From Patescibacteria group bacterium (GTDB taxonomy: Bacteria; Patescibacteriota; Patescibacteriia; 2-12-FULL-57-11), in contig SCUL01000002.1 in the NCBI GenBank assembly GCA_004297205.1, forward strand, positions 77,156-141,155: a stretch of 64,000 nt of DNA. The letters are read 5' to 3'. Below are positions 13,012 to 38,382 of the stretch, one piece after another; position 1 is the first letter of the stretch; every line of letters begins with the position of its first letter. Position numbers and translations under genes: made by a program. The notes below the pieces were generated by a model that did no database searches, was not told the origin of the DNA, and saw only the letters and a list, made by a program, of their open reading frames with translations.

Positions 13012-13414
13012 GGATGAAGTACGATTGATCGCCGTCTTTAAGCGTGAACGTTCCGTCCATGACCGGCCGGAGCGATCCCGAAGGAAAGACGATTTCCGTG
13101 AGGCCGGAGAGGGTAACGGGGCCCGGCAGATCGGTGGTCACGTCCTTGCTCGGGACGCGCGTCGCGTAGGTCGTGCCCGCGAAACGCACGACGTGATCCG
13201 TGAACACCGCGACCCCGTGCGCCTGATCGTCGGTTTGCGTGAAGGCGTCCGATCGCGCTTGGGCGATCTCCGCCGCAACGGTCTCCGCGGCGGCGGCCAA
13301 CCGTTGCGTGCTCAGGAAGGCGAAGGACAACGTGGCGCCGAGTCCCGCGAGCATGAGCATGAGCGCGAGCACGACGGTCGTTTCGATGAGGGTGAAGCCG
13401 CGCATGCCCGTCAA
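12965..13414 (-). CDS. prepilin-type N-terminal cleavage/methylation domain protein (pseudopilin, GspH/FimT-like size)
   Basis: MTGMRGFTLIETTVVLALMLMLAGLG is the canonical class III signal. Confidence 0.75.
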   Translation of the reverse strand: MTGMRGFTLIETTVVLALMLMLAGLGATLSFAFLSTQRLAAAAETVAAEIAQARSDAFTQTDDQAHGVAVFTDHVVRFAGTTYATRVPSKDVTTDLPGPVTLSGLTEIVFPSGSLRPVMDGTFTLKDGDQSYFIHVSPYGVVEWEKGTE

Positions 13415-14517
13415 CGCACCGTGTTTATTCCCTGCGTCAGCTGGTAGATCGGCGTGATGATGGAGATGGCGATGAACCCGACCAAGACGCCGATCAGCAC
13501 CATGAGCAACGGTTCGAGGATCGTGGTGAGATTTTTGGTGGCGTCATCGACCTCCCGTTCCATGACGGTGGACAGGTACTGGAAACACTCGTCGAGCCGC
13601 CCGGTTTCCTCGCCCACGCTGATCATCTGGCTGACGAATGGCGGGAAGAGACGGGGATTTTTGAGCATCTGCTCCGAAACGTTCCTCCCCTCCTGCACCG
13701 TCTCCCCGATCATGCTGAGTTCGTGCTGGTAGACGCGGTTGTTGATGGCGACGCTGGCGATTGAAAACCCCTCGACGATCGGAATGCCGGATTTCAGCAG
13801 CGTCGAGATGACGGCGGAAAGCTGGGTGATCTCCGTCTTGATGATGACCTGTCCGAGAATCGGCGCGCGAAGGAGGATCGCGTCGATGACGTAATGGAAG
13901 CGCGGCAGCCGCAGCAACAGGACGAAGGCGATGACGAAGACGATGGAACCCGCCAGAACGTAGACGCCGTAGGAAATCAGGAACCGCGACAGGTCCAAAA
14001 CGAGCTGGGTCGTCCATGGCAACTTCACGTTCAGGGAAATGAAGAGCGGCTGCAGCTGCGGGAGCAGGACGAAGAGCATGTACACGGCGATCGCCACCGT
14101 TCCCGCGATGACGATCACCGGATACAGCATGGCGCTGCGAATCTTGGACTGCAGATCGTGCGACTTTTCCAAATAGGCGCTGATGTGAAGGAAACTTTCG
14201 GTCATCGTCCCGGATTCTTCGCCGACGGACACGAGTTGCGTCAAAAGGTTGTTGAACAGGCGGGGCATCTTCTTCATGCTCGAGGATAGGAACTGGCCGG
14301 AAGAAACGTCGCTGAGCATGATGTGCAGCACCTGGTGCATCGTCTTCGACCGCACTTGGTTGTGCATGGCCAGCAGGCTCCGTTCGAGGGGCACGCCGGA
14401 TTCCGTCATGATGCCGAGGTATTTGAAAAGCGTGATCCGCTCCTTCGAAGAAATCCAGGCGAACTTCGGGAGACGGGTCGACCATGGCTGCCGTTCCTCT
14501 TTTTTGTCGCGGGCCAT
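13411..14517 (-). CDS. pilC: type IV pilus assembly platform protein PilC / GspF family
   Basis: Two GspF-type repeats with 3 TM segments, ...PLERSLLAMH...GEESG... and ...GEETGRLDE... motifs. Overlaps the pilB stop region. Confidence 0.9.
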   Translation of the reverse strand: MARDKKEERQPWSTRLPKFAWISSKERITLFKYLGIMTESGVPLERSLLAMHNQVRSKTMHQVLHIMLSDVSSGQFLSSSMKKMPRLFNNLLTQLVSVGEESGTMTESFLHISAYLEKSHDLQSKIRSAMLYPVIVIAGTVAIAVYMLFVLLPQLQPLFISLNVKLPWTTQLVLDLSRFLISYGVYVLAGSIVFVIAFVLLLRLPRFHYVIDAILLRAPILGQVIIKTEITQLSAVISTLLKSGIPIVEGFSIASVAINNRVYQHELSMIGETVQEGRNVSEQMLKNPRLFPPFVSQMISVGEETGRLDECFQYLSTVMEREVDDATKNLTTILEPLLMVLIGVLVGFIAISIITPIYQLTQGINTVR

Positions 14518-14521
14518 ACGG

Positions 14522-15829
14522 CTACTCCTGGATGACGCGCAAGACCTCCGCGATGGACGTCATGCCGTCCGCGGCTTTCCTGACCCCGTCCATGACCATG
14601 GTCGTCATGCCGCCCAGAACGGCCGCCTTGCGGATGGCGTCGGCGTTCTCGCGCTGCATGATCATGTGCCGGATTTGCTCGGTGATCTCCATCACCTCAT
14701 AGATGCCTATGCGGCCGGAGTACCCCGTGTTGTTGCATTCCTTGCAGCCGACGGGTTCCGCAAACAGGGTGTTTTTCGTCAGCATGTCCGCGGGAAGGAC
14801 GTCCTTGAGGCTGTTGCGTTCCACGGCGGTCAGGACCCGTTTCGTGGCGCAGGCCGTGCACAGTTTCCGGACCAGACGCTGACCGATGGCCACGTTGACG
14901 GTGGAGGCGATCAGGAAGGGTTCGATGCCCATGTCCAGCAGGCGCGGCAGCGTGACGGCGGCGTCGTTGGTATGCAGGGTCGAGAGCAGCAAGTGTCCGG
15001 TCATGGCCGCGTTGACGGCGATGCCGGCGGTCTCCTGGTCGCGGATCTCCCCCACCATGATGATGTTCGGATCCTGACGGACGATAGAGCGCAGCCCCTG
15101 CGCGAACGTCAGGTTGGTGCGGACGTTCACGGGAATCTGCGTGACGCCGGCCATGGCGTACTCGATGGGGTCCTCGATGGTGATGATCGAGCGCTGCCGC
15201 GTGTTCAGCACCTGCAGGATGGAGTACAGGGTGGTTGTCTTTCCGGAACCCGTCGGTCCGGTGGCCAGGATCATCCCATAGGACTTGTGGAGGCTGCTTT
15301 CCACCGTCCGCAAATCCTTCTCCGACATCCCCAGTTCGTGCAACGCGAGGGACTTGGCCTGACCGACCAACAGACGCATGACGATGTTCTCCCCGTGGTA
15401 GGTCGGCGTAATGGAGACGCGGACGTCCACCGGCATGTCGTCGAACACCATGCGGAAGCGGCCGTCCTGGGCCTCAAGGTGCGCGTCCGTGCGCAGCTCC
15501 GAAAGGACCTTCACGCGCGTAATGAGCATGGCATGGACGGCCTTCGGCAGCATCAGGACGTCGTGCAGAATGCCGTCAATGCGGTAGCGGATGACGATGA
15601 ACGCTTCCTCCGGCTCCACGTGGACGTCCGAGGCCCGCGAGGAATACGCGTACCGGACGATGCCGTCCGCGAGATCCTTGATCGTCGTGTTTTCCAGTTT
15701 CTGGATGCCGCGGAGCGCTAAAATCTGCTGGGAGTCCTGAACGGATTTCCGCAATTGCACTTCGATGGTTCCCTTTTCTTTTGTCTCGGCCGCCCGGGGT
15801 TTCATTTGCGGCATGTGCATGACATTCAT
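14522..15829 (-). CDS. pilB: type IV pilus assembly ATPase PilB / GspE family (short, no N1 domain)
   Basis: Walker A GPTGSGKTTT, Asp box, Walker B IIMVGEIRD and His box, plus the tetracysteine CTAC...CKEC motif of GspE/PilB. Confidence 0.9.
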   Translation of the reverse strand: MNVMHMPQMKPRAAETKEKGTIEVQLRKSVQDSQQILALRGIQKLENTTIKDLADGIVRYAYSSRASDVHVEPEEAFIVIRYRIDGILHDVLMLPKAVHAMLITRVKVLSELRTDAHLEAQDGRFRMVFDDMPVDVRVSITPTYHGENIVMRLLVGQAKSLALHELGMSEKDLRTVESSLHKSYGMILATGPTGSGKTTTLYSILQVLNTRQRSIITIEDPIEYAMAGVTQIPVNVRTNLTFAQGLRSIVRQDPNIIMVGEIRDQETAGIAVNAAMTGHLLLSTLHTNDAAVTLPRLLDMGIEPFLIASTVNVAIGQRLVRKLCTACATKRVLTAVERNSLKDVLPADMLTKNTLFAEPVGCKECNNTGYSGRIGIYEVMEITEQIRHMIMQRENADAIRKAAVLGGMTTMVMDGVRKAADGMTSIAEVLRVIQE

Positions 15830-18141: not shown

Positions 18142-18813
18142 TCAACCCTCCAGACGCGCTGTCACCCAGTCAGCAACCTGTTCCAGAAACGCGGGATACG
18201 TTTCAAACATCCGCGTGCCGTGCCCGGCGTCGGCGAACTGTTTAACGTCCGTTTTTGCCAACGAACGTTCCATCAACTTCTCGACGCTCGGACCGGAAAT
18301 CTCGTCGTCGGCGCTGCTGGCCAAAAAAACATGGCGGTCGCGCGTCAGGGACTGGATGAGCGGCATGGTGGCGACGTCGCGGTAATTCAAACCGGGCGAA
18401 AGCAGCACCGCACCCGGAACGTCGGCGTGCGCGGCCGCGTATTGCAAGGCAAGGTTGGCGCCGATGGAAGCGCCGACCAGCACGAGGTCGACGGTTCTGA
18501 CGCCGTGCGTCTTTTCAAGGAACGCGACCGCCGCTTCGACGTCTTTGATCTTGGCCTGATGCTCTGGATGCGCGAACGTCGTGTAGTCGAGCGTCCGACC
18601 GTCGGTTGTTTCGGTGCTTTTGCCGTGTCCACGGAAGTCGATGGCCAGGGACGAGACGCCGCGCACGGCGAGCGCTTCCATGAGCGGCGCGTAGGACTCC
18701 TTGGTTGCGGGCATCATGTGCAACAGCAGCGCCCAGCGTTTGCCGTCCCCCGCTTCGCGGACCGTGCCGACGATGCGGACGCCGTCGTCGGTGACGAACG
18801 TCACAGTGGTCAT
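18142..18813 (-). CDS. alpha/beta hydrolase (dienelactone hydrolase / esterase-like)
   Basis: Nucleophile elbow GASIGA (GxSxG) and HGxxxxxD-type catalytic residues near the C-terminus. About 220 aa. Confidence 0.75.
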   Translation of the reverse strand: MTTVTFVTDDGVRIVGTVREAGDGKRWALLLHMMPATKESYAPLMEALAVRGVSSLAIDFRGHGKSTETTDGRTLDYTTFAHPEHQAKIKDVEAAVAFLEKTHGVRTVDLVLVGASIGANLALQYAAAHADVPGAVLLSPGLNYRDVATMPLIQSLTRDRHVFLASSADDEISGPSVEKLMERSLAKTDVKQFADAGHGTRMFETYPAFLEQVADWVTARLEG

Positions 18814-20930
18814 GGCGATGCGGGTTGCGGCAGATCCTCGGCCGGCGTGGACGTGGCGCCGGTCAGCCGCTCGATGCGGGCCTGCAGTTCACGGTTGCCG
18901 GGCGCGAGCGCCGCGGCGGCCTCGTACCAACGCACCGCGTCGGCGGTGCTGCCGCGCTGCTCGAGGAGCTGGGCCAGCAGGAGGTAGGCGGACGGGTCGC
19001 CGCCGGCGGCGGAGGCGCTGGCCGCGATCTCTTCGGCCACGCGGACCGCCTCATCAATGCGGCCGGTCCGGGCCAGCAGCCCGGCGAGGCGGGCGCGGGC
19101 GATGAGCAGTGCCGGCGCGATGCGCACGGCGTCGCGATAGGCGGCTTCGGCGGCCGCGGTGTCCCCGCTCAGGTCGGCGAAGTCCCCGGCCGCGACGGCA
19201 AACGTCGGGTTGCTCGGTTCACGCACGCGGGCGGCGGCGATCCAACCGCTGAGTTCCGAAACGTCCGCGCCCGCGGCCGTCAGCTGCATGCCGACCGTGA
19301 TCGCCGCTTCCAAGGTGGCCGCGCTTTGCGTGCCGCTGACCGCGGCGCGGGTCCGTGCCAGCGCCGTTTCCAGCGTGGTCTTCAGGCCCGCTTCATCCGT
19401 CGCGCCGTCCGCGCGGAAGAGCGCCTGCAACGCGCCGATCGCCTGCCACTCCGGCGCCGCGTTCCAGCGCAGAAGGGCGGCATAGGCCTCATCCTGCGCG
19501 GCCGGATCGGTGGCCCGCAGCAAGCGTCCCGCGGCGTTCTGGGCTGCCGCCAACCAGACGGCAGCGGCCAGGAGGAGCACGGTCAGGGCCAGCAGGCCCG
19601 CCGTCAGCCAGCCGGCCAGGAGCGCCTGTCGGCCGCCGGTCTTGGCGGCGGATTCCGTGTCTCGCGCGACCAGCCAGCCGGCCAGGAGCGCCAGGGTCAG
19701 CAGGGCAGCTTGGGGCAGCAGAAGGATGCCTGCGGCAAAGGTCGCGGCTGCGGCGGCGGCAAAGACGCCGGCGGCCAGTGCCGCGCCGTCCGCATCCGGC
19801 GTGACGCGGCGGGCGAAGACGCGGCGGATGCCTTTGACCTGGGGCGGCGCGCCGATCAGTTTCCACCCGGCGGCAAACGACGCGCCGAGCGAGACGGCCA
19901 GCGCCAGCGTCCCGACCGGACCGAGTTCATACAGGAACTGCAACAGCGTCGAGGCCGGAACCGGAATGCGCACGTTCCAGAGCGCGGTCGTGTTCAACAA
20001 CTCGGGGCGGACGCGGGCGAAGGCCTCGGCGAAACCGCCGGGTCCGACGCCGGCGAAGGTCGCTGGCTCCTGCGTCCAGAGGCGCGCCAGGGCCGCGGCG
20101 GTTTCCGACTGACGGACGTTGATCTCCACCGGGAGATCGGCGACAAGCGGCGGTGGCAGGCGGACGAAGGACAGCACCAGGGCCGCGGCCGCCGCGACGA
20201 AAGCGGCCTGGGTGGTCGGCCGGTGGACCTGGTCGAAGCGCCGCACGACGTGGATGAGCAGCACGACCAGACCGACGAACAGGGCCGCCCAAGCGGCCGC
20301 GCGATCGGCGCGGACAAGCACGGCCAGATGCAGCAGGACGGCGACGAGCGCCACGGCGCGGGCCGGCACGGCGCGTCCGGCGGCCAGGGCGTACCCGAAG
20401 GCAAGCGGCATCGCGATGACGGAGAGCAGCGCCACGGCGGTCGGTGCCGCTGCAGCGAAGGCCGCGGGCACCGGCACGGCCGGCAGGAACGTCTTCAGCA
20501 GGAACAACGCTTGATGCGCCGTCAGGAGGCCAAGCACGACGGCCGGCAGCACGCTCCGTGCCCGGCCGGTGACGGCGGCGGCGACGAGGAAAGCGCCCGC
20601 AACGGCCAGCAGCAGCGTCGCGGAACCGGTCCACAGCGCCGCACTCCCCCAAAAGGCGCGGCCGGGATTTCCGCCCGCCGCGAGCGACACGAGCACGGCC
20701 AGGACGAAGACGCCGAGTCCGACCAGAAAGACGCGGTCCGGCCGCGGACGCAGCAGGGCCTCGCGCCCCGCGGTGCAGGCGGCAAGGACCAGCGCCAAAA
20801 CGAGCGCGGCGCGGGCGTCGCCGACCGGATCGGCCGCACCGGGCAGATACGCAAAAAGGGCCGCGGCAACGGCCAAAGCAACAAAGACGGCGGGCAGCGC
20901 TGCCCGCAGATCGGCAGGGGCGGTTTTCAT
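18810..20930 (-). CDS. polytopic membrane protein, O-antigen ligase-like (Wzy_C-type) with C-terminal TPR repeats
   Basis: About 12 TM helices. Loop motif ...STLLQFLYELGPVG... resembles the Wzy_C/O-antigen ligase signature. The last 200 aa are TPR-like Ala-rich repeats (AYRDAVRIAP..., AVRWYEAAAALAP...). Confidence 0.55.
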   Translation of the reverse strand: MKTAPADLRAALPAVFVALAVAAALFAYLPGAADPVGDARAALVLALVLAACTAGREALLRPRPDRVFLVGLGVFVLAVLVSLAAGGNPGRAFWGSAALWTGSATLLLAVAGAFLVAAAVTGRARSVLPAVVLGLLTAHQALFLLKTFLPAVPVPAAFAAAAPTAVALLSVIAMPLAFGYALAAGRAVPARAVALVAVLLHLAVLVRADRAAAWAALFVGLVVLLIHVVRRFDQVHRPTTQAAFVAAAAALVLSFVRLPPPLVADLPVEINVRQSETAAALARLWTQEPATFAGVGPGGFAEAFARVRPELLNTTALWNVRIPVPASTLLQFLYELGPVGTLALAVSLGASFAAGWKLIGAPPQVKGIRRVFARRVTPDADGAALAAGVFAAAAAATFAAGILLLPQAALLTLALLAGWLVARDTESAAKTGGRQALLAGWLTAGLLALTVLLLAAAVWLAAAQNAAGRLLRATDPAAQDEAYAALLRWNAAPEWQAIGALQALFRADGATDEAGLKTTLETALARTRAAVSGTQSAATLEAAITVGMQLTAAGADVSELSGWIAAARVREPSNPTFAVAAGDFADLSGDTAAAEAAYRDAVRIAPALLIARARLAGLLARTGRIDEAVRVAEEIAASASAAGGDPSAYLLLAQLLEQRGSTADAVRWYEAAAALAPGNRELQARIERLTGATSTPAEDLPQPASP

Positions 20931-20932: not shown

Positions 20933-21382
20933 TTACGGTGATGAACGGAACAAACGCTCCACCTCGTCCACCCAGCGGACGGCGTCAGGATCCTGTCCCT
21001 CGACGCGGCTCGGAACGGGCGGAGCGGCGGTACCAATGGCTGCCGGAATGGCGGCGGCAGGCACCGGGGAGGCAAAAATCCGGTCGAAGACGGCCACCAG
21101 TCCGCGGTCGGCGGAAGAACGGACTTCTTCGGCGCCGAGCGCCAAACGGCCCCAGCCGATCACCAGCACGTCTTCGGCGCGCAGCGTGACCTCGTCCCAC
21201 GAGGCCATGCCGCGACGCATCGAGTCCGAGAGCGCGGCCAGCGGATGGAAATCCGCGACGGCAGTTGCGAGGCGGTACGGCGCGGCCGCGAGATCCGTCC
21301 GCAGGTCGGAAAAATCCCGCGCCTGCACCGAGGCGGGCGCGAGCGTCAGACAGAACAGGAGGATGGCGACCAGGCGCTTCAT
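20933..21382 (-). CDS. secreted hypothetical protein (signal peptide)
   Basis: MKRLVAILLFCLTLAPASVQA signal peptide. No homology recognised. Confidence 0.5.
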   Translation of the reverse strand: MKRLVAILLFCLTLAPASVQARDFSDLRTDLAAAPYRLATAVADFHPLAALSDSMRRGMASWDEVTLRAEDVLVIGWGRLALGAEEVRSSADRGLVAVFDRIFASPVPAAAIPAAIGTAAPPVPSRVEGQDPDAVRWVDEVERLFRSSP

Positions 21383-23184
21383 GGCTGCTGCGGGTCATCG
21401 AACGAGACGACTTCGCCCGGCGCGGGGCGGCCTCCCGCTTTCTGGAACGGCACCGGTGTGGCGGCGGGGATTGCGGACAGGGGGACGTTCTTGGCCGGTT
21501 CCGGCGGCGCGGACTCGACGGGAATTGCCGCCGCTTGCTTGCGCTCCTCTTTTACGATTTTGAAACAGTCGTCGCAGAAGTACGGCCGGCTCGGATCCGG
21601 CTGGAAGGTCAGCTGCATGGTTTTGCCGCAGCGCGCGCAGACCGCGTCATAGGCCTGCTTGCCCGGCTTCGGCGCGGCGGGCTTCGCGGCCGGTTTGGCG
21701 GCGGCAGCCGGGGCGGAGGCGGCCTTTGCGGGAGGCGGAGGCGCCACAGGCGTCGTGGGACGCGGCGCGGCAGGGCGGGGCGCCGGGGCGCGCAACGCGG
21801 GCGCGGCGGCTGCGACCACGAACCGCGGCGCCGCGGGCCGGGGCGCGGCGGCAGCCGGAGCCGCGGCCGATACGGTCGGTGCCGCGCCGAGGAATCCGGC
21901 CCAACGCAGGATCTTTTCCTCGACCACGGCGCGCGGCTGGGCGTAGCGCTCGCGGGACACCTTGATGACGCGCTCCGTGCTGCCGGTGCGCGCATTGATC
22001 GGCGGCAGCGTGTTGGCGGAAAAAATCTCCGAGGCCACGCCGTCGATCATCAATTTGATGTAGACCTCGAACTTCGTCAGGTTGGTCAAATCCTCCGGAA
22101 TGAAGCGCGGCGCGACTTCCTGCTCCAGGAAAAGGGCGTCCGCGGCGCCGACGCGGAAGAAAATCATCGTGCCGACGTTGCCGAAGACGGCCGGACGCAC
22201 GTAGTCCTCGTCGAGCTGTTCGATGTACTGGTGGGCGACGATCAGGTTGAGCCGGTATTTGCGGGCCTCGGACAGAATATTGGCGAAGCTGGCCGTGGCG
22301 AAATTCTGGAATTCGTCGACGTACAGGTAAAAATCGCGGCGCTCCTCCTCGGCCATGTCGACGCGCTCCATGACGGCGAGCTGCAGCTGGGTGATGAGCA
22401 TGCCGCCCAACAGGCGCGAGGAGTCTTCGCCGATGCGTCCCTTGGCCAGGTTTATGATCAGGATCTTTCCCTCGTCCATGATCTCCCGCATGTTGATCGT
22501 GGACTTCACTTGGGCGACGATGTTGCGGATGATGGTGGCCGCCAAAAACTGACCGACCTTGTTCTGGATCGGGGCGATGGCCTCGTTGCGGAAGCGGTCC
22601 TCCCAACGCGCGTATTCATCGACCCAGAAGGCCTTCACCACCGGATCCTTCAGTACGGAGACGACGCGCTTGCGGAATTCCTTGTCGACCAGGATGCGGT
22701 TGATGCCGAGCAGCGTGGAATCGGGATATTCCAGGAGCGACAGGATGCACTGGTTGAGGATGTGCTCCATGCGCGCGCTCCAGACGTCCGGCCAGATCTT
22801 CTTGAAGACGCCCATCAGCCCCTGCGCCACGAGCGGCCGGTTGGCTTCGTCCACGGCCTCGAGCAGGTTGAAGCCGATCGGATATTCGATGTCCGCGGGG
22901 TTGAAGTAGACGACGTCGTTGATGCGCTCCGGCGGGATGAAGTCGAGCAGGCGCTCCGCCGTGTCGCCGTGCGGGTCGACATAGGCCACGCCGTGGCCGG
23001 CGTTGATGTCGTTCAGGATCATGTTTTCGAGGAGCGTCGTCTTGCCCATGCCGGTTTTGCCGAGCACGTAGACGTGCCGGCGCCGGTCGTCCGTCTTGAT
23101 GCCGAACTTGCGCCGCGCGTTGCGGTAGTTGGTCTCGGCGAAGAGGTTGATCTCGCTCTCGTGGTCGTGCGGGTAGGACGCCAT
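21379..23184 (-). CDS. P-loop ATPase of the VirD4/TraG/TrwB coupling-protein or HerA/FtsK-like family, with Pro/Ala-rich linker and C-terminal CxxC...CxxC zinc ribbon
   Basis: Walker A VLGKTGMGKTT. ...YVDPHGD...VVYFNPAD...IGFNLLE resembles T4CP nucleotide-binding-domain motifs. Walker B FYLYVDEFQNF. C-terminal CARCGKT...FCDDCF. No TM segment in this protein. Confidence 0.65.
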   Translation of the reverse strand: MASYPHDHESEINLFAETNYRNARRKFGIKTDDRRRHVYVLGKTGMGKTTLLENMILNDINAGHGVAYVDPHGDTAERLLDFIPPERINDVVYFNPADIEYPIGFNLLEAVDEANRPLVAQGLMGVFKKIWPDVWSARMEHILNQCILSLLEYPDSTLLGINRILVDKEFRKRVVSVLKDPVVKAFWVDEYARWEDRFRNEAIAPIQNKVGQFLAATIIRNIVAQVKSTINMREIMDEGKILIINLAKGRIGEDSSRLLGGMLITQLQLAVMERVDMAEEERRDFYLYVDEFQNFATASFANILSEARKYRLNLIVAHQYIEQLDEDYVRPAVFGNVGTMIFFRVGAADALFLEQEVAPRFIPEDLTNLTKFEVYIKLMIDGVASEIFSANTLPPINARTGSTERVIKVSRERYAQPRAVVEEKILRWAGFLGAAPTVSAAAPAAAAPRPAAPRFVVAAAAPALRAPAPRPAAPRPTTPVAPPPPAKAASAPAAAAKPAAKPAAPKPGKQAYDAVCARCGKTMQLTFQPDPSRPYFCDDCFKIVKEERKQAAAIPVESAPPEPAKNVPLSAIPAATPVPFQKAGGRPAPGEVVSFDDPQQP

Positions 23185-23187
23185 AGT

Positions 23188-24669
23188 CTACGCGCCGGGC
23201 AGGTTCGCCGGGGGCTCCCCCGTCGCGGCGGTCGGGGCCTGCTTGGGGGTGAATACCGGCGGCCGCTCGACCGGCAGGCGGATCGGCGGTTCGGCGCGCT
23301 TGGATTCGGCCTTCTTCAGGGACGGCGTCTTCACCAGGAGCGACGGGAAGTGCCAGATCGAAGCGAGCTCCTCGGTGGACAGGATGTAGTGCTGGGCGCC
23401 GCGCCAGTTGGAACGGTACTTGTACGCCAGGAAGATCGACTTGATGCGCTCGTTCGTCGTCTTGTAGAACGTGCCGGACAGGTAGAAAAAGATCGGGTTG
23501 AGCTGCCAGAAATAGTCGTACTTCGTGGTGACGGAGCCCGCGAACCCGAGCTTGTTCATGTTCAGCGTCGTGAACTGCTGCAGCGCGCCGCGCACGAAGG
23601 AGATGATCGTGCCGGTGCGGAACTTCTTCTTCGGCGCGATGTAGATGAAACGAATCTTGGTGTGCAGGCCGATCTTGGACAGCTTCTGTTCGACGCGTTC
23701 CACGACGAACCGTTCGCCCGGCGAGAGGTAGAGCATCTGGGAACGCACGTCGTCCTTCTTCTGCACCGGCTTGGCGGACTCGCCGCCGACCAGTCCTTGC
23801 ACGCCCAAGTCGAGCGCGTGCAGCGGCAGGTCCATGGCTTTGTCGAGCATCGTCGCTTTGGGCGTGACCTTGGTGCCGATCAGTTTCTTGACCAGCTTCT
23901 CGCCCTTCTCCTGCCAGTCCTGCTTGGTCGTGGTCACGAGCATCTGCAGCCACACCTGCTCGCCCGGCTGCAGCATGGCCAACGACTCCAACAGTCCGGC
24001 CATGGGATCCTTGAACTCGCCGGAGACCGGGTCGGTGAAATCCGCATGGGTCTTGAGCGGGTAGTATTCCGGCTTGCTCAGCACGAACTCCGAACCGAAC
24101 AGGCCCCACTCCTTGTTCGGCCACGGCCACTTCTGGGGCGCGTTCAGCACGTAGTCCTCGACCTCGGTGATTTCCGCTTCCGGGTACTGCGCGTAGACGA
24201 TGGCTTCCACGAGGTCGCGGTATTTGGACCAGACGCGGATCAGGAACTGGACGTAGCCTTCGATGGAGACGATTTCGAAACTGAACACCGGGTGCATTTT
24301 GCCTTCCCAGTACTTTTCCTTGCGCGTGTGGGTCGAGTGCGCGCCCAAGAGGTGCGCGAAGATGTTTTCGACGGCCTTCGGCGTCTGTTCCGTGGACTTC
24401 GGCACGTCGATGGCCAGCAGCACCGGGTTCACGCTCTGCATGAACTTGAACTGCCGCTCGTTGATCCAGATCCACCAGAACCCGCGCAACATGACGATGA
24501 GCATGGGGATCCAGCCGCCGGCACGGAAAAGCTCCCACATGATGATCAAGGGGTGCTGCGCTCCGAGCCAATCCATCCAGACGAGAATGGCGGCAACGTC
24601 GATGGTGATCGACGGCATAGGCGCACATAGTATAACACATGGAAAACAAAGAGGGGCATGGTCTGCCAT
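23188..24669 (-). CDS. membrane protein (2 N-terminal TM helices plus about 400-aa soluble domain), co-operonic partner of the VirD4/HerA-like ATPase
   Basis: 3-nt gap to the ATPase gene. Lower local GC. Trp/Tyr/Lys-rich. Probable start is Met at about 24621 (MPSITID...). No family recognised. Confidence 0.55.
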   Translation of the reverse strand: MADHAPLCFPCVILCAPMPSITIDVAAILVWMDWLGAQHPLIIMWELFRAGGWIPMLIVMLRGFWWIWINERQFKFMQSVNPVLLAIDVPKSTEQTPKAVENIFAHLLGAHSTHTRKEKYWEGKMHPVFSFEIVSIEGYVQFLIRVWSKYRDLVEAIVYAQYPEAEITEVEDYVLNAPQKWPWPNKEWGLFGSEFVLSKPEYYPLKTHADFTDPVSGEFKDPMAGLLESLAMLQPGEQVWLQMLVTTTKQDWQEKGEKLVKKLIGTKVTPKATMLDKAMDLPLHALDLGVQGLVGGESAKPVQKKDDVRSQMLYLSPGERFVVERVEQKLSKIGLHTKIRFIYIAPKKKFRTGTIISFVRGALQQFTTLNMNKLGFAGSVTTKYDYFWQLNPIFFYLSGTFYKTTNERIKSIFLAYKYRSNWRGAQHYILSTEELASIWHFPSLLVKTPSLKKAESKRAEPPIRLPVERPPVFTPKQAPTAATGEPPANLPGA

Positions 24670-24691
24670 GCCCCTCCCCGTGTGGATACTG

Positions 24692-28844: not shown

Positions 28845-29235
28845 GGAATTCGGGAAAACCCGTTGCCTCGTCATGAATCCGACGATACACGACGTCGTCG
28901 AAGATGCCGAACACAACCTCGGCCGTGGTATCCACAACGCAGCCGTCCTTGAGGTGGCCGCCGATAACGGCACCGTCCTTGTCCGAAAGGCTGACGTGGA
29001 TGTGACAGCCGTCCGCGGCGATCGTTCCGGTTCCGGAAACGATTTCGAGCGGTCCCGCGATCGTACGGACGATTTGCGCGTCCGGCGTGGCGCCGGCCAT
29101 CCGCAAAACCGCCGTGCGCACCCCGCCGACCAGGGACAACAACACGCCCGCGCCGATCCTTCGTTCACGGGCGATGCGTTCGATCTCTTCCTTCAGCAGT
29201 TGTCCCGGCCGGAGCCGGAAGGAAATCTGTTTCAT
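28831..29235 (-). CDS. PPC domain protein (DUF296; PCC/AT-hook-associated fold)
   Basis: 134 aa with G-rich beta-strand pattern ...GAGVLLSLVGGVRTAVLR...GPLEIVSGTGTIA...HIHVSL... Its ATG overlaps the TGA of upstream DUF1653 (ATGA). Confidence 0.7.
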   Translation of the reverse strand: MKQISFRLRPGQLLKEEIERIARERRIGAGVLLSLVGGVRTAVLRMAGATPDAQIVRTIAGPLEIVSGTGTIAADGCHIHVSLSDKDGAVIGGHLKDGCVVDTTAEVVFGIFDDVVYRRIHDEATGFPEFHVTS

Positions 29236-29498
29236 ACCTCACGCACCCAGGCGAACCGCGGGCCTTTGTACTCCCCCACTTCGACGTGCTCGAGGAACAT
29301 GCCGAGCGGTCGGATCCAATACAGACCCGGATCGATCAACGACTAGTACACCACGAACTCCTGCGCCGGGTCCTCGCTGCTGCGCCCGACGAACCGCGCA
29401 TGATACACGCCGCCTTTGTAGTGGCGGTAGATGCCGGGGCGGAACCGTTGCGCGGCGTCGGAGAGCGGCGGGAGATCGGGGGACATGCCGATGCTCAT
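29232..29498 (-). pseudogene. DUF1653 family gene interrupted by an in-frame TAG (amber) at 29343-29345
   Basis: Frame from ATG 29498 reads MSIGMSPDLPPLSDAAQRFRPGIYRHYKGGVYHARFVGRSSEDPAQEFVVY*SLIDPGLYWIRPLGMFLEHVEVGEYKGPRFAWVREV*. Both halves match DUF1653 (YRHYKGG.Y ... Y..RPL.MFLE). Both ends are coupled to neighbours by ATGA overlaps. Confidence 0.6.
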
Positions 29499-30493
29499 CT
29501 CAGTGCATTAATCCTATCCCTGCTCATTTCTATCTGTTTTTCTCTTTCTTTCTCGTTTCTTTCCCAGATAGCAGACAATGTTTCCTTCACGTGACCGATG
29601 TTTTGACGCTGCACGACGTTACTGATCACGGAACCGGACGGATATTCAACAAAAACCGTCAAGGTATTGAACACCACCTGCCCGGATCTTGGGGTGAACA
29701 ATTGTTTATGAAGCTCGGGCGAACGCATGTGTACTCGTTCCTCAACCGACCGAAACGCGGCTTTCAGGTCTTCCTGATTCCCTAAAATGTCGAGGTGTTT
29801 CACGGCTTTGCCCGTCAATGCCGTCCCTGAAACCATCGGCAGAATACGGCGTTCAAGCGCCCAGTCAATTACCTCACCGGCATCATCGGCGTTGTCTTTG
29901 TACACCATGATGGAAACACCCATTCTCGTGAATCCGTTTTTATCCGGTTTGTTGAATCCGGCATCGATCATGGCACGTATCGCCTCATCTCTTTTTTCCG
30001 CATATTTCTTAACACCGGAGATTCTGTTCTCTTTTTCGGGGTCAAAACTATTCACTTTCACGACGAAGGAAACGGGATACTCCCTTAATTTTTCAATTGC
30101 GGTCGCATTCAATAGAGCGCCGTTCGTAAATACCGTGACATGCAGATCCAGCTCTCTGGCTTTTTCGAGAAGCGGCCAAATCTCTTTATTTGAAAAGGGC
30201 TCGCCGTGGCCCGCCAACAACAGATTCGTAATCCCGAGATTCTTTGCTTCCTCCAACAATTCAACGCTTTTTGCGACATCAACCGATTGTTGCGTCTTTT
30301 CTCTGTACGCATCGGTAAAACAATACACGCAGTTCAAATTACACTTCTCTCGTGGAAAGGAAATACTCAGCTGCAGGGGCCTATCGCGTTCCCAGGCTCG
30401 TTCAATGTCCTCGATGTCAAAATCAATTCCTTTCAGCTTGATGGGCTCGGGTTTCTCTACCTCCGGACTCGGAAAATATTCTCCAGATCTCAT
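29495..30493 (-). CDS. radical SAM protein (CxxxCxxC; function unknown)
   Basis: CNLNCVYCF cluster and GHGEPF glycine-rich SAM motif. 332 aa. No SPASM or twitch Cys cluster seen. Local GC is clearly lower than surrounding genes. Confidence 0.75.
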   Translation of the reverse strand: MRSGEYFPSPEVEKPEPIKLKGIDFDIEDIERAWERDRPLQLSISFPREKCNLNCVYCFTDAYREKTQQSVDVAKSVELLEEAKNLGITNLLLAGHGEPFSNKEIWPLLEKARELDLHVTVFTNGALLNATAIEKLREYPVSFVVKVNSFDPEKENRISGVKKYAEKRDEAIRAMIDAGFNKPDKNGFTRMGVSIMVYKDNADDAGEVIDWALERRILPMVSGTALTGKAVKHLDILGNQEDLKAAFRSVEERVHMRSPELHKQLFTPRSGQVVFNTLTVFVEYPSGSVISNVVQRQNIGHVKETLSAIWERNEKEREKQIEMSRDRINALR

Positions 30494-30518
30494 ATGCCAT
30501 CATCTTACACTACGAGTT

Positions 30519-31445
30519 TCATACCGGAATCTTTACCTTGGCAAGCTGCGACTCACGGATCGACAGGCCGAGGAACAACGCGAGCAGCAGGACGGTGTTG
30601 AGCGGCGCGACCCAGAAGCCGAACTCGCGTCCGAAACTTTCCAGCACCATCAGGCCGCCAAGCATGCCGATGGAATACATGGCGCCGTTCTTGAGATAGG
30701 CGAACTTGGAAATGACATCGATGCCGCGCACCGTCACCTCGCGGACGACGAGCGCGCCGATGCCGTTGCCGATCAGGATGAGCACCACGGACAGCGTGAA
30801 GGCGAAGGCGCCGATCACGCCGTCGATGGAGAACGACGCGTCGAGCACTTCGAGGTACAGCAGTTTGCTCCAGGCGCTCAGATGCGCGGTGTGCAGTTTC
30901 TTCTCCGTCTCCTCGGCGTTGCGCCGGAAACCGTCGGTCACGAAGAAGGCCGTGGCGCCGATGGAGGCGGACAGCGCCAGGATGGGATTCTCGCGCACCG
31001 CCAGGGCGATGACCTTGGTGATGAAAATCGAGGCGAAGGCGTAGAACCAGACGCTCTGGCGGTGGATGAAGTGCTCGACAAAGAAGGCGTACTTCTTCTC
31101 CTCCATGAACAGCCAGCCGAGAAAAACGAAGACGAGGTAGACGCCGCCGGCCAGCAGCAACAACGGCTTGGAATGCTCAAGCGCCGCACTGACCTTGTCC
31201 GGTTCCGTGAACACCAGACGCATCAGCTCCGGCAGCGGGATGTTGGTATTGGCAAGCCAGACAATGAGGAACGGCAGCACGCCGCGCACCACGAACACGG
31301 CCAAGAGCAGCCCCCAGAACAGGAAAAACTTCCGGTACTTCTCCGGCAGGGTCTTCAGGACGTGGGCGTTGACGATGGCGTTGTCGACCGAGCTGATGAC
31401 CTCGAAGACGACCAGCCCGAAGATGACGACGAGGGATTGCAGCAT
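30519..31445 (-). CDS. DUF475 family integral membrane protein
   Basis: MLQSLVVIFGLVVFEVISSVDNAIV... N-terminus and ...SFSIDGVIGAFAFT... are typical of DUF475. About 8 TM helices. Confidence 0.65.
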   Translation of the reverse strand: MLQSLVVIFGLVVFEVISSVDNAIVNAHVLKTLPEKYRKFFLFWGLLLAVFVVRGVLPFLIVWLANTNIPLPELMRLVFTEPDKVSAALEHSKPLLLLAGGVYLVFVFLGWLFMEEKKYAFFVEHFIHRQSVWFYAFASIFITKVIALAVRENPILALSASIGATAFFVTDGFRRNAEETEKKLHTAHLSAWSKLLYLEVLDASFSIDGVIGAFAFTLSVVLILIGNGIGALVVREVTVRGIDVISKFAYLKNGAMYSIGMLGGLMVLESFGREFGFWVAPLNTVLLLALFLGLSIRESQLAKVKIPV

Positions 31446-31446
31446 A

Positions 31447-32022
31447 TCAGCCTTGTGCCTTCAGGATCTCGTCGAGCAGCACCGGCAGCTCGGTCACGCC
31501 ATCGTCCCCTGAGAAATGCCCCATCTCTTCGAGGATGATCGTTTTGGCACCGAGCTTATTACGCATCGCGACTTCGTTCTCCAACGGCACGTAGCGGTCG
31601 TTGTCGGAAAAAATCGCCTCGATCCGGCCTGCGGCGCGTTTTGCACGCTCGGTGTCGAGCGGCGTCCGCAACCACTCCGCGGCGATCGGCCGTTCTTCAT
31701 CGCTGTCCGCATTCGTCAGGTGGTTGAGGAACCCCGCCACGAGATAGGCGCCGCCGACGCGTTGATCGTCCGAAAGGTCGGCGAGGTACCGCAAGATTGC
31801 CTGACAGCCCATGCTGTGCCCGACCAAGATTGTCTCCTCGTCCGCCGTGCCGACAACGGTCGCAAGAAACGGCACCCAGGTGCCGATGCGCGGCGTGTCG
31901 GTCTCCGGCATCTCCGGTGCTTCCACGGCGAACCCGCGGGATTCGAGTTCCCGCTTCAACCACGGGAACCAGCCATGCTCAGGTGTTCCGCTCCAGCCGT
32001 GGATCAGGAAAGCGCGTTTCAT
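31447..32022 (-). CDS. alpha/beta hydrolase, RBBP9/YdeN-like serine hydrolase family
   Basis: About 190 aa, MKRAFLIHGWSGTPEHGWFPWL... with a GHSMG nucleophile motif, matching the family. Confidence 0.75.
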   Translation of the reverse strand: MKRAFLIHGWSGTPEHGWFPWLKRELESRGFAVEAPEMPETDTPRIGTWVPFLATVVGTADEETILVGHSMGCQAILRYLADLSDDQRVGGAYLVAGFLNHLTNADSDEERPIAAEWLRTPLDTERAKRAAGRIEAIFSDNDRYVPLENEVAMRNKLGAKTIILEEMGHFSGDDGVTELPVLLDEILKAQG

Positions 32023-32052
32023 ATGGCTTTCAGAATGACAGAAACGCGGAAA

Positions 32053-32081
32053 GAAAAAAAGACGCGTGCCTCCTGCACGCG
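32053..32081 (-). terminator. rho-independent terminator ending the SET/ASCH/HD operon
   Basis: On the minus strand: CGCGTGCAGGAGGCACGCG hairpin followed by TCTTTTTTTCTTT. Confidence 0.55.
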
Positions 32082-32124
32082 CGACGCCCGCCCGGCGACG
32101 GTCAGCGGCGCTGCGGAGCGCCCC

Positions 32125-32355
32125 TCACCTCTGGCGCAGGCGGTGCGACGTCTGCAGCTTCACGGAGCGTTTCGTCGACGGCGGAAGCCGCACCCGTTTC
32201 TCCGGTAGGTCGGTCTCGCACCGCGTGACCCGCTCGCGTGCCAGCTTCTTGCGCGCCCGCTGCGCCGCCAACGAACCGACGACGAAATCACGAACGTTCA
32301 TCTTCACCTCTTCTCTAAAACTAGCACACGGACGCGTGCCGTCAACACGATGCAA
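32125..32355 (-). CDS. small basic hypothetical protein (possible; may instead be 3' UTR)
   Basis: 76-aa ORF (plausible start MNVRDF...) between the SET gene and the terminator. No RBS or homology. Confidence 0.25.
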   Translation of the reverse strand: MHRVDGTRPCASFREEVKMNVRDFVVGSLAAQRARKKLARERVTRCETDLPEKRVRLPPSTKRSVKLQTSHRLRQR

Positions 32356-32378
32356 TACGGCGACGCCTGCCAGCCCCG

Positions 32379-32756
32379 TCAGGGCCTCCCCTGTTCGAAC
32401 TCTCCATAATCTTGCAGGAGCTCCTCTCCGGCCTCGATGTCTCTGACGGCGACAAGCCGATACTCGGGCGCACCGGCGTCAACCGTGATGTTCCCGACGT
32501 CCGCATGGTTGCAGAAGCGGATGTCATCGAACGCTAGATGCCAGGTGCCATCGTTGAAGTATCCGTAATGACGGATCTGTTTCTGGGAAAAAACATCCAG
32601 CTTCTGGAAATCGGCATCGGAAATATCAACGTCCAAATTCGAACTCATTTTGTACACCAACGAACCCTTGGCGACGCGTTGATCGGCAAAAAGACCGATG
32701 CCGTGTACGGGACTTTTCTCCAGTCGTGTTTTGACGAAAAGCATATGAGAGATCAC
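32379..32756 (-). CDS. SET domain protein (putative protein-lysine methyltransferase), 125 aa
   Basis: GIGLFA...KGSLV N-terminal SET motif. ...RFCNHADVGNITV... (the NHSCxPN equivalent). ...VAVRDIEAGEELLQDYGE... is post-SET-like. ATG overlaps the ASCH TGA. Confidence 0.65.
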   Translation of the reverse strand: MISHMLFVKTRLEKSPVHGIGLFADQRVAKGSLVYKMSSNLDVDISDADFQKLDVFSQKQIRHYGYFNDGTWHLAFDDIRFCNHADVGNITVDAGAPEYRLVAVRDIEAGEELLQDYGEFEQGRP

Positions 32757-33082
32757 GGCCCCCGCAACTCGAAGGTGATCATCTTCACGGGCGTGTCCAA
32801 CGTCACCCGGTCGCCGTAATACTTCTTGTATGCCTCGAACATCTTTTTGCTGCTTTCAAACCGCTCATGCCCGACAAAATCCGCATCCGTGATCCCGCCG
32901 AGGCGCTTCTCCTTGATGGCCGTGATACGCGCCGACGCAAACTCTTCTCCGGTGGACTTATTCACAAGCGAAAGCTCATCGCCGACACGGAGATCCTTGT
33001 CATCAAACATCCGCCAGGTGGATTTCTTCTCACCAGACAGCACCAACGGCACGAGATGGTCGAACAACTTGAGGGTCTTCAT
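32753..33082 (-). CDS. ASCH domain protein (PUA-like fold), 109 aa
   Basis: MKTLKLFDHLVPLVLSGEKKSTWR... is the typical ASCH N-terminus. ATG 33082 overlaps the HD gene TGA (ATGA). Confidence 0.7.
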   Translation of the reverse strand: MKTLKLFDHLVPLVLSGEKKSTWRMFDDKDLRVGDELSLVNKSTGEEFASARITAIKEKRLGGITDADFVGHERFESSKKMFEAYKKYYGDRVTLDTPVKMITFELRGP

Positions 33083-33699: not shown

Positions 33700-33736
33700 A
33701 AATCATTTGTCATTCTGAGGGGCAGCGAAGAATCCT

Positions 33737-34411: not shown

Positions 34412-34417
34412 TGGTCG

Positions 34418-34804
34418 TTACGACAACCCCTTCTCCCGGTATTCCTTCTTGATCTGCCAATACATGCTCTCCGTGCCCGGCTCCTCCGTCCGGTTGCGCA
34501 TCAGCTCCGCCGGATACTTCTTGGCCACGTGCGCCAGCTTTTCACGAACGATCTGTTCGGTGTCGAGATTCAGCAGCACGGACATCTCCAATGCGTAGAT
34601 CAGCACGTCAGCAAGCTCTTTTTTGATCTGCTGCACCTTCTCCGGATTCTTGCGCACGTCTTCGAGCGACAGGTTTTCCCACTGGAACAATTCCAACAAC
34701 TCCGCGCCTTCGATCATGATCGACTTGGCGATATCAACCGGACGCAGGGTGTCCCAACGTCGGTCCTTGAGGTGTTGATAAACGTCTTTCTCGAGGTCCT
34801 TCAT
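34418..34804 (-). CDS. MazG-like nucleotide pyrophosphohydrolase (all-alpha NTP-PPase)
   Basis: EExxE-type metal motifs (EGAELLELF; ELADVLIYALE). 128 aa. Confidence 0.75.
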   Translation of the reverse strand: MKDLEKDVYQHLKDRRWDTLRPVDIAKSIMIEGAELLELFQWENLSLEDVRKNPEKVQQIKKELADVLIYALEMSVLLNLDTEQIVREKLAHVAKKYPAELMRNRTEEPGTESMYWQIKKEYREKGLS

Positions 34805-36651: not shown

Positions 36652-36657
36652 CAAGAG

Positions 36658-36721: not shown

Positions 36722-36730
36722 AAGACAGAT

Positions 36731-38381: not shown

Positions 38382-38382
38382 A

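Follow-up and report, generated by a model that had tools for sequence, protein, structure and literature searches.

What is built by a soluble P-loop ATPase and the membrane protein encoded immediately upstream of it, and do the two form a single machine? The question is raised by a pair of genes in a stretch of 64,000 nt of a Patescibacteria contig (SCUL01000002.1, assembly GCA_004297205.1), here called the window, to which all coordinates refer. As the first-pass annotation had reported, two open reading frames lie in the same direction on the minus strand, at 21379-23184 (601 aa) and 23188-24669 (493 aa), with a gap of only 3 nt (TAG-ACT-ATG). Among the annotated neighbours of this module are secDF, genes for a TPR membrane protein and for a hydrolase, and mnmA; two small open reading frames beside it show no family match.

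Boundaries of the gene pair

Directly after the secF stop, RNA folding reveals a terminator-like hairpin with a 16-bp stem and a U-tract (24640..24681, minus strand; −33.3 kcal/mol, z −5.43, with 0 of 200 shuffles folding equally well), which parts secDF from the two-gene module. Because the first ATG of the partner frame (24669) falls within the stem of this hairpin, and because a database protein 100% identical to the partner (P0001) is 476 aa long, the upstream ATG is taken to be false and the gene most likely spans 23188-24618 rather than 23188-24669. A possible extended −10 element, TGnTATACT, can be read by eye at 24629..24637 (minus strand), where a consensus promoter scan makes no call; its end lies 10 nt upstream of the ATG at 24618, so that a near-leaderless transcript would result.

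The downstream gene encodes a TrwB/VirD4-type ATPase

The 601-aa product of the downstream gene (21379..23184, minus strand, as are all features below) is a TrwB/VirD4-family P-loop ATPase that has no membrane segment, its maximum 19-residue Kyte-Doolittle score being 1.23. Pfam matches above cut-off comprise TrwB_AAD_bind (1.5e-11, 44.3 bits, cut-off 20.5), TraG-D_C (3e-7, 30.7 bits, cut-off 22), DUF87 (9e-7, 29.7 bits, cut-off 23.2) and T4SS-DNA_transf (2e-5, 23.9 bits, cut-off 20.1), while FtsK_SpoIIIE stays below its cut-off (14.9 bits against 24) over a 23-residue P-loop stretch. TrwB is the closest relative in the PDB by sequence search and by profile comparison (hhalign probability 94.5%, E 8e-8, 257 columns) and also comes first in a Foldseek search (E 5e-11) with the AF2 model, which is of only moderate confidence (pLDDT 66). 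HerA structures rank below TrwB among the Foldseek matches, the NCBIfam HerA model gives no match, and matches to CedB and CedD are tiny and cover the P-loop only. Of the VirD4/TraG- or HerA-like affiliation first proposed, and of the profiles named for its verification, the coupling-protein part thus holds, as does a match to DUF87; HerA is a second-tier match, FtsK_SpoIIIE drops out, and the ATPase belongs with coupling proteins and not with a metabolic P-loop family. The HerA/FtsK-superfamily translocases (HerA-NurA, Ced/CedD and mad8 of MADS) share with it the ASCE P-loop superfamily.

The motor core (residues 1-430; 21895..23184) contains, by hhalign against TrwB and the AF2 model, a P-loop domain and, between its two Walker motifs, a putative helical insertion. 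Walker A is GKTGMGKT (residues 42-49; 23038..23061), with G42, K43, G45, G47, K48 and T49 invariant in the ATPase alignment A2, and Walker B is YLYVDE (residues 286-291; 22312..22329), with D290 and E291 invariant in the same alignment. The insertion is modelled as a helical block at residues 113-229 with a local pLDDT of 47-77; the hhalign alignment to TrwB extends across it, though with many gaps. Despite an identity of only ~16-17%, the homologous motor of TrwB (R388) and VirD4 agrees with that of the window in the surroundings of Walker A (GxTGxGKS/T, then VDPxGD), in having a Walker B and sensor region and, putatively, in a helical insertion at the corresponding place. However, these type IV coupling proteins (T4CPs) carry an N-terminal two-helix transmembrane domain, which the window ATPase lacks and for which the upstream gene would supply the anchor.

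Beyond the motor, the ATPase has an Ala/Pro-rich, low-complexity linker at about residues 431-510 (21655..21894), predicted to be disordered (AF2 pLDDT <50 across residues 424-507), and a CxxC-x17-CxxC treble-clef zinc ribbon (residues 509-542; 21559..21660), neither of which is a feature of TrwB or VirD4. The ribbon matches Pfam zf_Tbcl_2 (PF23477; E 2.2e-10, 40.5 bits against a cut-off of 27) and TIGR04272 (E 2.2e-10, 40.1 bits against 36), and its four cysteines (C516-x2-C519-x17-C537-x2-C540) are all invariant in alignment A2. It is detected in at least 43 of 71 ATPase orthologues, none being detected in about 40%. The first-pass description of this protein, which listed both Walker motifs, the missing transmembrane segment, the Pro/Ala-rich linker and the C-terminal ribbon, is borne out on these points.

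A DUF8128 membrane protein as partner

The upstream gene (23188..24618) encodes a 476-aa DUF8128 protein (PF26449), the putative membrane-anchored N-terminal half of a split coupling protein. By precomputed match, PF26449 is carried by P0001 and by nearly all of the 120 listed homologues, and the family amounts to 3209 50%-identity clusters at E<=1e-3. Two transmembrane segments had been ascribed to this protein; family-averaged hydropathy gives a single hydrophobic stretch (peak 1.7) at residues 24-52 (24463..24549), which includes GGWIPMLIVMLRGFWWIWI, and the AF2 model (pLDDT 80.3) has a long helix at residues 23-62. As the flanks of this stretch are net negative on the N side (−2.4) and net positive on the C side (+1.8), the sequence suggests a single-pass protein with its N terminus outside and its large domain in the cytoplasm.

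The globular domain (residues about 63-430; 23329..24432), predicted to be cytoplasmic, comprises ~400 aa, and its predicted fold matches the N-terminal domain of VirB4 (TrwK) and nothing else, a likeness at the level of fold only (hhalign of the DUF8128 profile against TrwK, E 0.15). As modelled, the partner is more than the missing transmembrane stub of a T4CP, since it joins a large VirB4-N-terminal-domain-like domain to one transmembrane helix. It ends in a conserved region (23191..23370) comprising EELASIWHFP, KAESKRAEPPIRLP and a terminal PPANLP motif, in which E416, E417, A419, H423, F424, P425, P444, P445, L448, P449, P470 and P474 are invariant or near-invariant columns.

Fused homologues join the two halves in the same order

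The proposal that the pair is a split coupling protein is supported by proteins that unite both halves in a single chain. In gp156 of the Bacillus phage G, the DUF8128 profile aligns with aa 15-168 (probability 96.4%, E 1e-9) and the ATPase profile with aa 373-782 (E 1e-36); phrog_5156 shows the same arrangement at profile positions 72-306 (E 2.7e-12) and 408-806 (E 1.4e-57). An 812-aa T4CP from an Embleya plasmid (OG928_RS01290) matches the ATPase with E 1e-48, and its N-terminal domain is collinear with DUF8128 over 330 columns (E 1.8e-4), including the transmembrane helix and the ELAxxxHxP motif. An 800-aa protein of the Clostridium botulinum plasmid pCLK (CLK_RS19280) likewise contains both halves in this order. 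Taken singly, the matches of the N-domain in Embleya and pCLK are weak (E 2e-3 to 2e-4). All these proteins share with the window pair its domains, their order and the ELAxxxHxP junction motif, and the Embleya proteins also share the single N-terminal transmembrane helix followed by a basic stretch. The counterpart of the DUF8128 tail is PELAALAHLP...VVPPARIP in alignments with the Embleya T4CPs and KELAQLMQLP in that with pCLK; from these alignments, the tail appears to be equivalent to the linker between the two domains of the fused homologues.

The fused proteins differ from the window pair in being single polypeptides of 800-825 aa, with ATPase domains ~25-35% identical to that of the window, and in residing on plasmids or a jumbo phage beside VirB4-like or VirB2-like genes. 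In Embleya (VirB4-like neighbour, E 5e-79) and phage G (gp155, E 3e-51), a VirB4 gene immediately precedes the fused gene, and a VirB2-like gene is nearby in pCLK. No characterisation of gp156, OG928_RS01290 or CLK_RS19280 was apparent in the literature searched.

[quoted passage not shown] The order of domains in VirB4 (TrwK), N-terminal domain then motor, is mirrored by the DUF8128-ATPase pair, and there is a precedent in TrsD and TrsE of pSK41/pGO1: trsD is encoded just upstream of the ATPase gene trsE in pSK41, and TrsD has been likened to the VirB4 N terminus (PMC12102498), which the fold of DUF8128 also resembles. However, the window motor is of T4CP and not of VirB4 type: hhalign is far better with TrwB than with TrwK/VirB4 (E 0.025), and VirB4 appears only around rank 42 in Foldseek. 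Between DUF8128 and TrsD, hhalign detects no similarity of sequence (E 0.33), a separate, bona fide VirB4 adjoins the fused relatives, and Patescibacteria T4SS clusters have a distinct VirB4 clade (PMC12102498). We regard a split VirB4 as very unlikely.

Conservation and genomic setting in Patescibacteria

The pair is adjacent, syntenic and vertically inherited within Patescibacteria, and under very strong purifying selection. The ATPase gene lies directly downstream of DUF8128 in 68 of 73 Patescibacteria species loci, and a housekeeping synteny from secDF to mnmA and alaS is conserved across 80 species loci. Median identity of the ATPase core reaches 67% (71 species loci), against 52% for SecD, 49% for SecF, 56% for AlaRS and 43% for MnmA, and is the higher in every paired comparison. 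T4CPs of the TrwB/VirD4 type, in contrast, evolve fast on mobile elements, among relaxase and T4SS genes. The VirB4, VirB6 and ComEC homologues that the first-pass annotation proposed to look for are absent from the 64-kb window by annotated genes and profile search, as is a relaxase, and no VirB4 or relaxase linkage is seen in the 6-kb flanks of the related loci inspected.

Such a setting is the opposite of the patchy, fast-evolving islands in which defence systems occur. An anti-phage function, suggested at first and here meaning a HerA- or MADS-mad8-type ATPase with a membrane sensor, draws on a PADLOC match of the ATPase to mad8 (E 2.9e-21) and on weak HerA matches. DUF8128 has no PADLOC match, however, and the genes annotated near the module include only the mad8-like ATPase of the eight-gene operon mad1-mad8, with no methyltransferase, NurA or other nuclease, or Sir2-type effector. 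With a single locus inherited vertically throughout the phylum, defence seems scarcely probable.

Lower GC had been taken as a hint of foreign origin, and would be accounted for if the pair were what is left of an integrative conjugative element gained by horizontal transfer. The dip is real relative to the Ala/Pro-rich neighbours (0.616-0.617 for both genes, 0.737 for a 706-aa TPR protein and 0.742 for the ATPase tail; window mean 0.634), and ATPase relatives do occur on 596 plasmid records. Yet, among about 30 genes of the window, the pair has some of the highest GC3 values (0.90 and 0.91) and is the best adapted in codon usage to the remainder of the window (0.81 and 0.82); because of these values, the lower GC is a matter of amino-acid composition, not of foreign DNA. 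The surroundings of the module yielded no integrase, relaxase, transposase or tRNA gene, and DUF8128 is absent from 72,556 plasmids and has one partial match among 2.9 million viral contigs. Native GC3, codon adaptation and phylum-wide synteny effectively refute an origin as a conjugative-element remnant, the least probable account of the locus.

A probable split coupling protein and its possible roles

We consider it rather probable, if by no means settled, that the gene pair encodes one machine, a monoderm-type T4CP split into two polypeptides that probably serves a T4SS in trans. The arrangement is that of class iii T4CPs (Llosa & Alkorta), which have no transmembrane domain and pair with a separately encoded membrane protein to reconstitute a VirD4-type complex, for example TraJ with TraI of pIP501 (PMC7431656). 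The likeness is one of arrangement, for DUF8128, with 476 aa and a VirB4-N-terminal-domain-like fold, is not a small membrane anchor, and the window pair is a core chromosomal rather than a plasmid-borne feature.

The most likely function, judging from the models, would be that of a membrane-tethered hexameric translocation motor. Six DUF8128 subunits would tether and cap a hexameric ATPase ring at the cytoplasmic face of the membrane, much as the N-terminal domain of VirB4 connects the motor domain of that protein with VirB3/VirB8. The tail, EELAxxWHFP...AEPPxxLP, would be the former inter-domain linker and may contact the conserved N terminus of the ATPase, whereas the Ala/Pro linker and zinc ribbon could form an accessory arm binding a substrate or partner. 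The ring would hydrolyse ATP to recruit or translocate a macromolecular substrate. The likeliest setting would be the chromosomal, relaxase-less T4SS of Patescibacteria. The Southlakia T4SS cluster has no recognisable coupling protein (PMC10633639), and with a cluster that lacks its own, the DUF8128-ATPase module would act in trans. A survey of 3,035 Patescibacteria genomes counted 5,713 VirD4-type homologues in 2,918 of them, and just 148 of these homologues lie close to virB4 (PMC12102498). Against a role in the T4SS, SEML1_0293, a T4CP homologue of Southlakia and at most a possible orthologue of the window ATPase, was scored as non-essential, whereas T4SS genes were essential.

The same split architecture may instead have been co-opted to do housekeeping work that is independent of a T4SS, such as uptake or processing of DNA or host RNA at the membrane, or FtsK-like chromosome handling, with the zinc ribbon as a nucleic-acid-binding arm. 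Of Patescibacteria genomes, 96% have T4CP homologues and 80% (2,417 genomes) have VirB4, the former almost never near virB4, which implies either that at least some act without a T4SS or that those assemblies are incomplete; exaptation was raised by the authors of that survey (PMC12102498). An accessory of secretion would not usually be expected to surpass AlaRS, SecD, SecF and MnmA in conservation, as the ATPase core does; the pair, set among syntenic housekeeping genes, is bounded by a terminator and a promoter-like element of its own, and Patescibacteria take up host RNA by a route yet to be settled (bioRxiv 10.64898/2026.06.21.733656). However, the fused relatives examined adjoin T4SS genes, nucleic-acid binding by the ATPase or its ribbon is conjectural, the ribbon goes undetected in a good part of the orthologues, and no channel partner for a stand-alone translocase has been identified. 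We view a housekeeping role as possible, but as less likely than service to a T4SS.

The ultra-small Patescibacteria thus keep the pair as a strongly conserved part of their chromosomes and, in the reading that we prefer, as a split coupling protein, whose motor may serve a chromosomal T4SS in trans or may have been taken over for another role.

The gene pair and its chromosomal setting

The window is ordinary core chromosome, encoding alaS, rpoA, a D-Ala-D-Ala carboxypeptidase, pilB/pilC, a pilin-like gene, mnmA, secD/secF, secA, murB/murC, glyA, dnaB, clp, recR, tgt and uvrC. A look for VirB4, VirB6 and ComEC homologues, as well as relaxase and integrase genes, found none within the 64 kb; ARAGORN found no tRNA or tmRNA gene there, and nothing in it scored at the gathering level of any Rfam family. 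A type IV pilus gene set (11566-15829, minus strand) begins about 5.5 kb 3′ of the module; it comprises pilB (T2SSE; 14522-15829), pilC (T2SSF; 13411-14517), a pilin-like ORF with an N-methylation motif (12965-13414) and a gene for a beta-propeller/LVIVD protein (11566-13011), all on the minus strand.

The two-gene module proposed by the first-pass annotation is evident in the ORF listing as two co-directional minus-strand ORFs, 21379-23184 (601 aa), encoding an ATPase, and 23188-24669 (493 aa), encoding its membrane partner DUF8128, separated by 3 nt. Directly 3′ of secF, a hairpin followed by a U-tract (24640-24681, minus strand) resembles an intrinsic terminator; it was overlooked by a consensus promoter/terminator scan, noticed by eye and confirmed by RNA folding (−33.3 kcal/mol, z −5.4). 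Because the first ATG of the 493-aa ORF, at 24669, sits inside the stem of this hairpin and the database protein identical to the window DUF8128 is 476 aa long, the DUF8128 gene most likely spans 23188-24618, with its start at 24618. This ATG is separated by 10 nt from the end of an upstream TGnTATACT element, a spacing that hints at a near-leaderless mRNA. On the other side of the pair, a 149-aa ORF with a signal-peptide-like N-terminus (20933-21382, minus strand) has an ATGA overlap with the ATPase stop codon, a hint that the two genes are translationally coupled; it has no family match, and tblastn detects no counterpart in related loci.

The local dip in GC content reported for the module exists, but only relative to its Ala/Pro-rich neighbours. 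Much of it is due to the high GC (0.737) of the adjoining gene (18810-20930, minus strand) for a 706-aa Ala-rich protein, which has many hydrophobic segments, C-terminal TPR repeats and weak similarity to PrsT, a PEP-CTERM TPR lipoprotein. The codon usage of the pair speaks against a foreign island: GC3 (0.90 and 0.91) is among the highest, and codon adaptation (0.81 and 0.82) the highest, of about 30 window genes. Lower GC (0.54-0.60) is seen at 29000-38400, a region of several small genes, including those for HD hydrolases, TerC, a probable pyrophosphatase, a probable NUDIX-type protein and P-loop kinases; should the window deviate in composition anywhere, it is here rather than in the flagged module.

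A TrwB-type motor without a membrane domain

The 601-aa ATPase contains Walker A (GKTGMGKT, residues 42-49) and Walker B (YLYVDE, residues 286-291) motifs and has no hydrophobic segment (maximum Kyte-Doolittle score of 1.23). An Ala/Pro-rich linker (about residues 431-510) leads to a zinc ribbon (C516xxC-x17-C537xxC), for which the Pfam zf_Tbcl_2 and TIGR04272 matches exceed cut-offs and which is seen in at least 43 of 71 ATPase orthologues. The Walker motifs, the lack of a transmembrane segment, the linker and the zinc ribbon had already been described from the sequence, and profile searches bear out the proposed kinship with coupling proteins: TrwB_AAD_bind (E 1.5e-11), TraG-D_C, DUF87 and T4SS-DNA_transf all exceed the Pfam threshold. 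The FtsK_SpoIIIE match falls below threshold, and an FtsK assignment was rejected.

Among solved structures, TrwB (E 4e-6) and DotL are closest in sequence. A profile of 27 ATPase sequences aligns with TrwB along 257 columns (E 8e-8, probability 94.5%) and only weakly with VirB4/TrwK (E 0.025). The AlphaFold2 model, with a pLDDT of 66 and a disordered tail, is of moderate quality. A Foldseek search puts TrwB in first place (E 5e-11 over about 400 columns), and HerA, Cag-beta, the VirB4 C-terminal domain, DndH, TdpA and DotL come next. The Pfam matches and the profile and fold matches to TrwB therefore identify the ATPase as a motor of the type IV coupling protein (T4CP) type that lacks the usual N-terminal membrane domain.

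DUF8128 is a membrane partner with a VirB4-like predicted fold

The partner protein has no match in Pfam, NCBIfam or PDB sequence searches; nearly all its listed homologues carry PF26449 (DUF8128), and its identity is taken solely from these precomputed labels and from structure. The first-pass annotation had described a membrane protein with two transmembrane segments and a large soluble domain. Hydropathy averaged over 42 homologues shows a single hydrophobic stretch (residues 24-52), with an acidic N-flank and a basic C-flank, which suggests one membrane pass and a large domain on the cytoplasmic side.

With an alignment of 42 homologues, AlphaFold2 gave a good model (pLDDT 80.3, pTM 0.75), whose top Foldseek matches are twelve chains of TrwK. 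As neither any other P-loop ATPase nor a structure containing only the VirB4 C-terminal domain was matched, and DUF8128 has no P-loop, the modelled likeness would be to the VirB4 N-terminal domain. Alignments of DUF8128 with TrwK and with TrsD by hhalign were not significant, so the link to VirB4 is one of fold alone.

The two proteins are halves of a coupling protein fused elsewhere

The idea of a split coupling protein is supported by proteins in which both halves are fused. A tblastn search of phage genomes matched DUF8128 to gp156 of Bacillus phage G, whose residues 15-168 align with the DUF8128 profile (probability 96.4%, E 1e-9) and residues 373-782 with the ATPase profile (E 1e-36). Independently, both window proteins match a single phage family, phrog_5156, as its two halves in collinear order: DUF8128 covers profile positions 72-306 (E 2.7e-12), and the ATPase covers 408-806 (E 1.4e-57). 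On plasmids, the ATPase core has 596 relatives. In linear plasmids of Embleya and Streptomyces, this relative is 812-819 aa long; it matches the ATPase in its C-terminal half (E 1e-48) and aligns collinearly with DUF8128 in its N-terminal 400 aa (330 columns, E 1.8e-4), from a single transmembrane helix and basic stretch to a junction motif (PELAALAHLP...VVPPARIP, compared with EELATLxHFP...AEPPxxLP in DUF8128). The Clostridium botulinum plasmid pCLK encodes an 800-aa protein with the same layout. The split lies in the linker between the two domains. Within Patescibacteria, no fusion occurs among the best 120 matches of a search with the homologue from L074, a Saccharibacteria-labelled MAG.

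[quoted passage not shown] The Embleya gene lies 3′ of PrgI/VirB3-like and VirB4-like (E 5e-79) genes and 5′ of a replication-relaxation family gene and an NlpC/P60 hydrolase gene; gp156 lies 3′ of the VirB4-like gp155 (E 3e-51), and the pCLK gene 3′ of a TrbC/VirB2-like gene. It is unlikely that the Patescibacteria pair represents a split VirB4, given that its motor is of the T4CP type and that fused relatives coexist with a separate VirB4.

Two of these loci merit comment. In the jumbo phage G (locus L087, 4270-8412), gp155 and gp156, the latter annotated 'MsbA-like', form a T4SS-type ATPase pair inside a phage genome. On the neurotoxin plasmid pCLK (locus L093, 8462-11262), the 800-aa protein, annotated 'ATP-binding protein' and with no NCBIfam match, is encoded directly 3′ of the TrbC/VirB2-like pilin gene and may be the coupling protein of these large plasmids.

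The pair is conserved across Patescibacteria

A profile search returned 3209 DUF8128 clusters at 50% identity, and at least 582 loci were found with one genome per species. The listed loci mostly carry Patescibacteria labels; the minority of other labels are probably wrong. Many pair-carrying species-representative MAGs (L008, L010, L011, L019, L020, L034, L051 and others) are titled 'uncultured Gammaproteobacteria bacterium', one of them a 931-kb chromosome, and this title is probably mistaken on MAGs with a Patescibacteria-specific gene pair.

The ATPase gene lies directly downstream of DUF8128 on the same strand in 68 of 73 evaluable loci and is absent within 6 kb in the other five. Usually secD-secF is upstream, and mnmA and alaS are often downstream. 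In one related locus (L001, 4971-7013), the upstream SecD contains inserted rotamase (PPIase) domains, an unusual fusion of a foldase with a Sec accessory component. Across the same genome pairs, median identity is 67% for the ATPase core, 52% for SecD, 49% for SecF, 56% for AlaRS, 43% for MnmA and 40% for DUF8128, and the ATPase core exceeds SecD, SecF, AlaRS and MnmA in every comparison. DUF8128 has no match among 72,556 plasmids and one partial match among 2.9 million viral contigs. Synteny, identity, codon usage and this near-absence from plasmids and viruses show a native module with vertical inheritance and strong constraint; the reading as a foreign island was rejected on codon usage and synteny.

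Proposed mechanism and function

Patescibacteria (CPR) account for a large part of bacterial diversity and live off host-cell resources. Their T4SS is essential in the sole genetically tractable member, whose cluster contains neither a coupling protein nor a relaxase.

Of the models considered, a membrane-tethered ring motor has the most support; its architecture is well supported, unlike the process that it serves. DUF8128 would act as membrane anchor and VirB4-N-terminal-domain-like adaptor at the membrane-proximal face, the TrwB-like subunit would perform ATP-driven recruitment or translocation, and the linker and zinc ribbon would form an accessory binding arm. This idea fits a recognised class of coupling proteins without a transmembrane domain that work with a separate membrane protein, exemplified by TraJ/TraI of pIP501 (PMC7431656), and the TrsD-TrsE arrangement of pSK41 offers a parallel. 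The module may serve the chromosomal T4SS in trans, a setting favoured because the fused relatives sit in T4SS neighbourhoods and because the T4SS gene cluster of Southlakia epibionticum lacks a coupling protein (PMC10633639).

Alternatively, the pair may have been exapted for a T4SS-independent role, a possibility raised in a 2025 survey that found thousands of orphan VirD4-like genes across Patescibacteria (PMC12102498). Of 3,035 Patescibacteria genomes, 2,918 encode T4CP homologues and 2,417 encode VirB4; only 148 of the T4CP homologues are close to virB4 (PMC12102498). The unusually high conservation of the motor also favours exaptation, as does the non-essential score of the Southlakia T4CP homologue SEML1_0293, whose orthology to this family is unproven. 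SEML1_0293 is a 921-aa protein with a TrwB domain at residues 402-719; its transposon reads were 5817, 2940 and 1372 over a time course in which its neighbours stayed flat (PMC10633639 supplement). This roughly four-fold fall is compatible with a fitness cost. SEML1_0293 and SEML1_0142 each have an N-terminal extension of roughly 400 aa, and that of SEML1_0293 might be DUF8128-like; the Tn-seq 'non-essential' call is not transferable to the DUF8128 family.

A defence system is an unlikely role: PADLOC matches the ATPase to mad8 (E 3e-21), but the genomic context is against it, and on that ground the reading was dropped.

Beyond service to a T4SS in trans, a bolder proposal, which we consider improbable, is that the pair acts as a motor, phylum-wide and near-essential, whose task is not DNA export: it would power or gate the acquisition of host macromolecules (RNA or DNA), either through the T4SS of Patescibacteria, which has no relaxase, or through another channel; if true, the pair would be an 'import-direction' or repurposed coupling protein. 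With its VirB4-like N-terminal domain and VirD4-like motor, the family could also have survived as an intermediate between VirB4 and canonical T4CPs.

A literature search found no publication on PF26449/DUF8128. Nor was any published description found of an obligate DUF8128 partner of the orphan VirD4-like ATPase, of its VirB4-N-terminal-domain-like fold, of DUF8128 forming the N-terminal domain in a class of fused monoderm T4CPs (on actinomycete and clostridial plasmids and in phage G) or of the degree of conservation. The orphan VirD4-like genes gain a conserved partner, and the partner a proposed fold similar to the VirB4 N-terminal domain. Their origin is traced to the splitting of a monoderm T4CP class that is fused beside VirB4 on plasmids and in a jumbo phage, and the motor is more strongly constrained than AlaRS or SecDF. 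A domain of unknown function and an orphan ATPase become one testable machine, put forward as the missing part that would energise host-material transfer or recruit for it; this bears directly on how Patescibacteria move macromolecules to or from their hosts.
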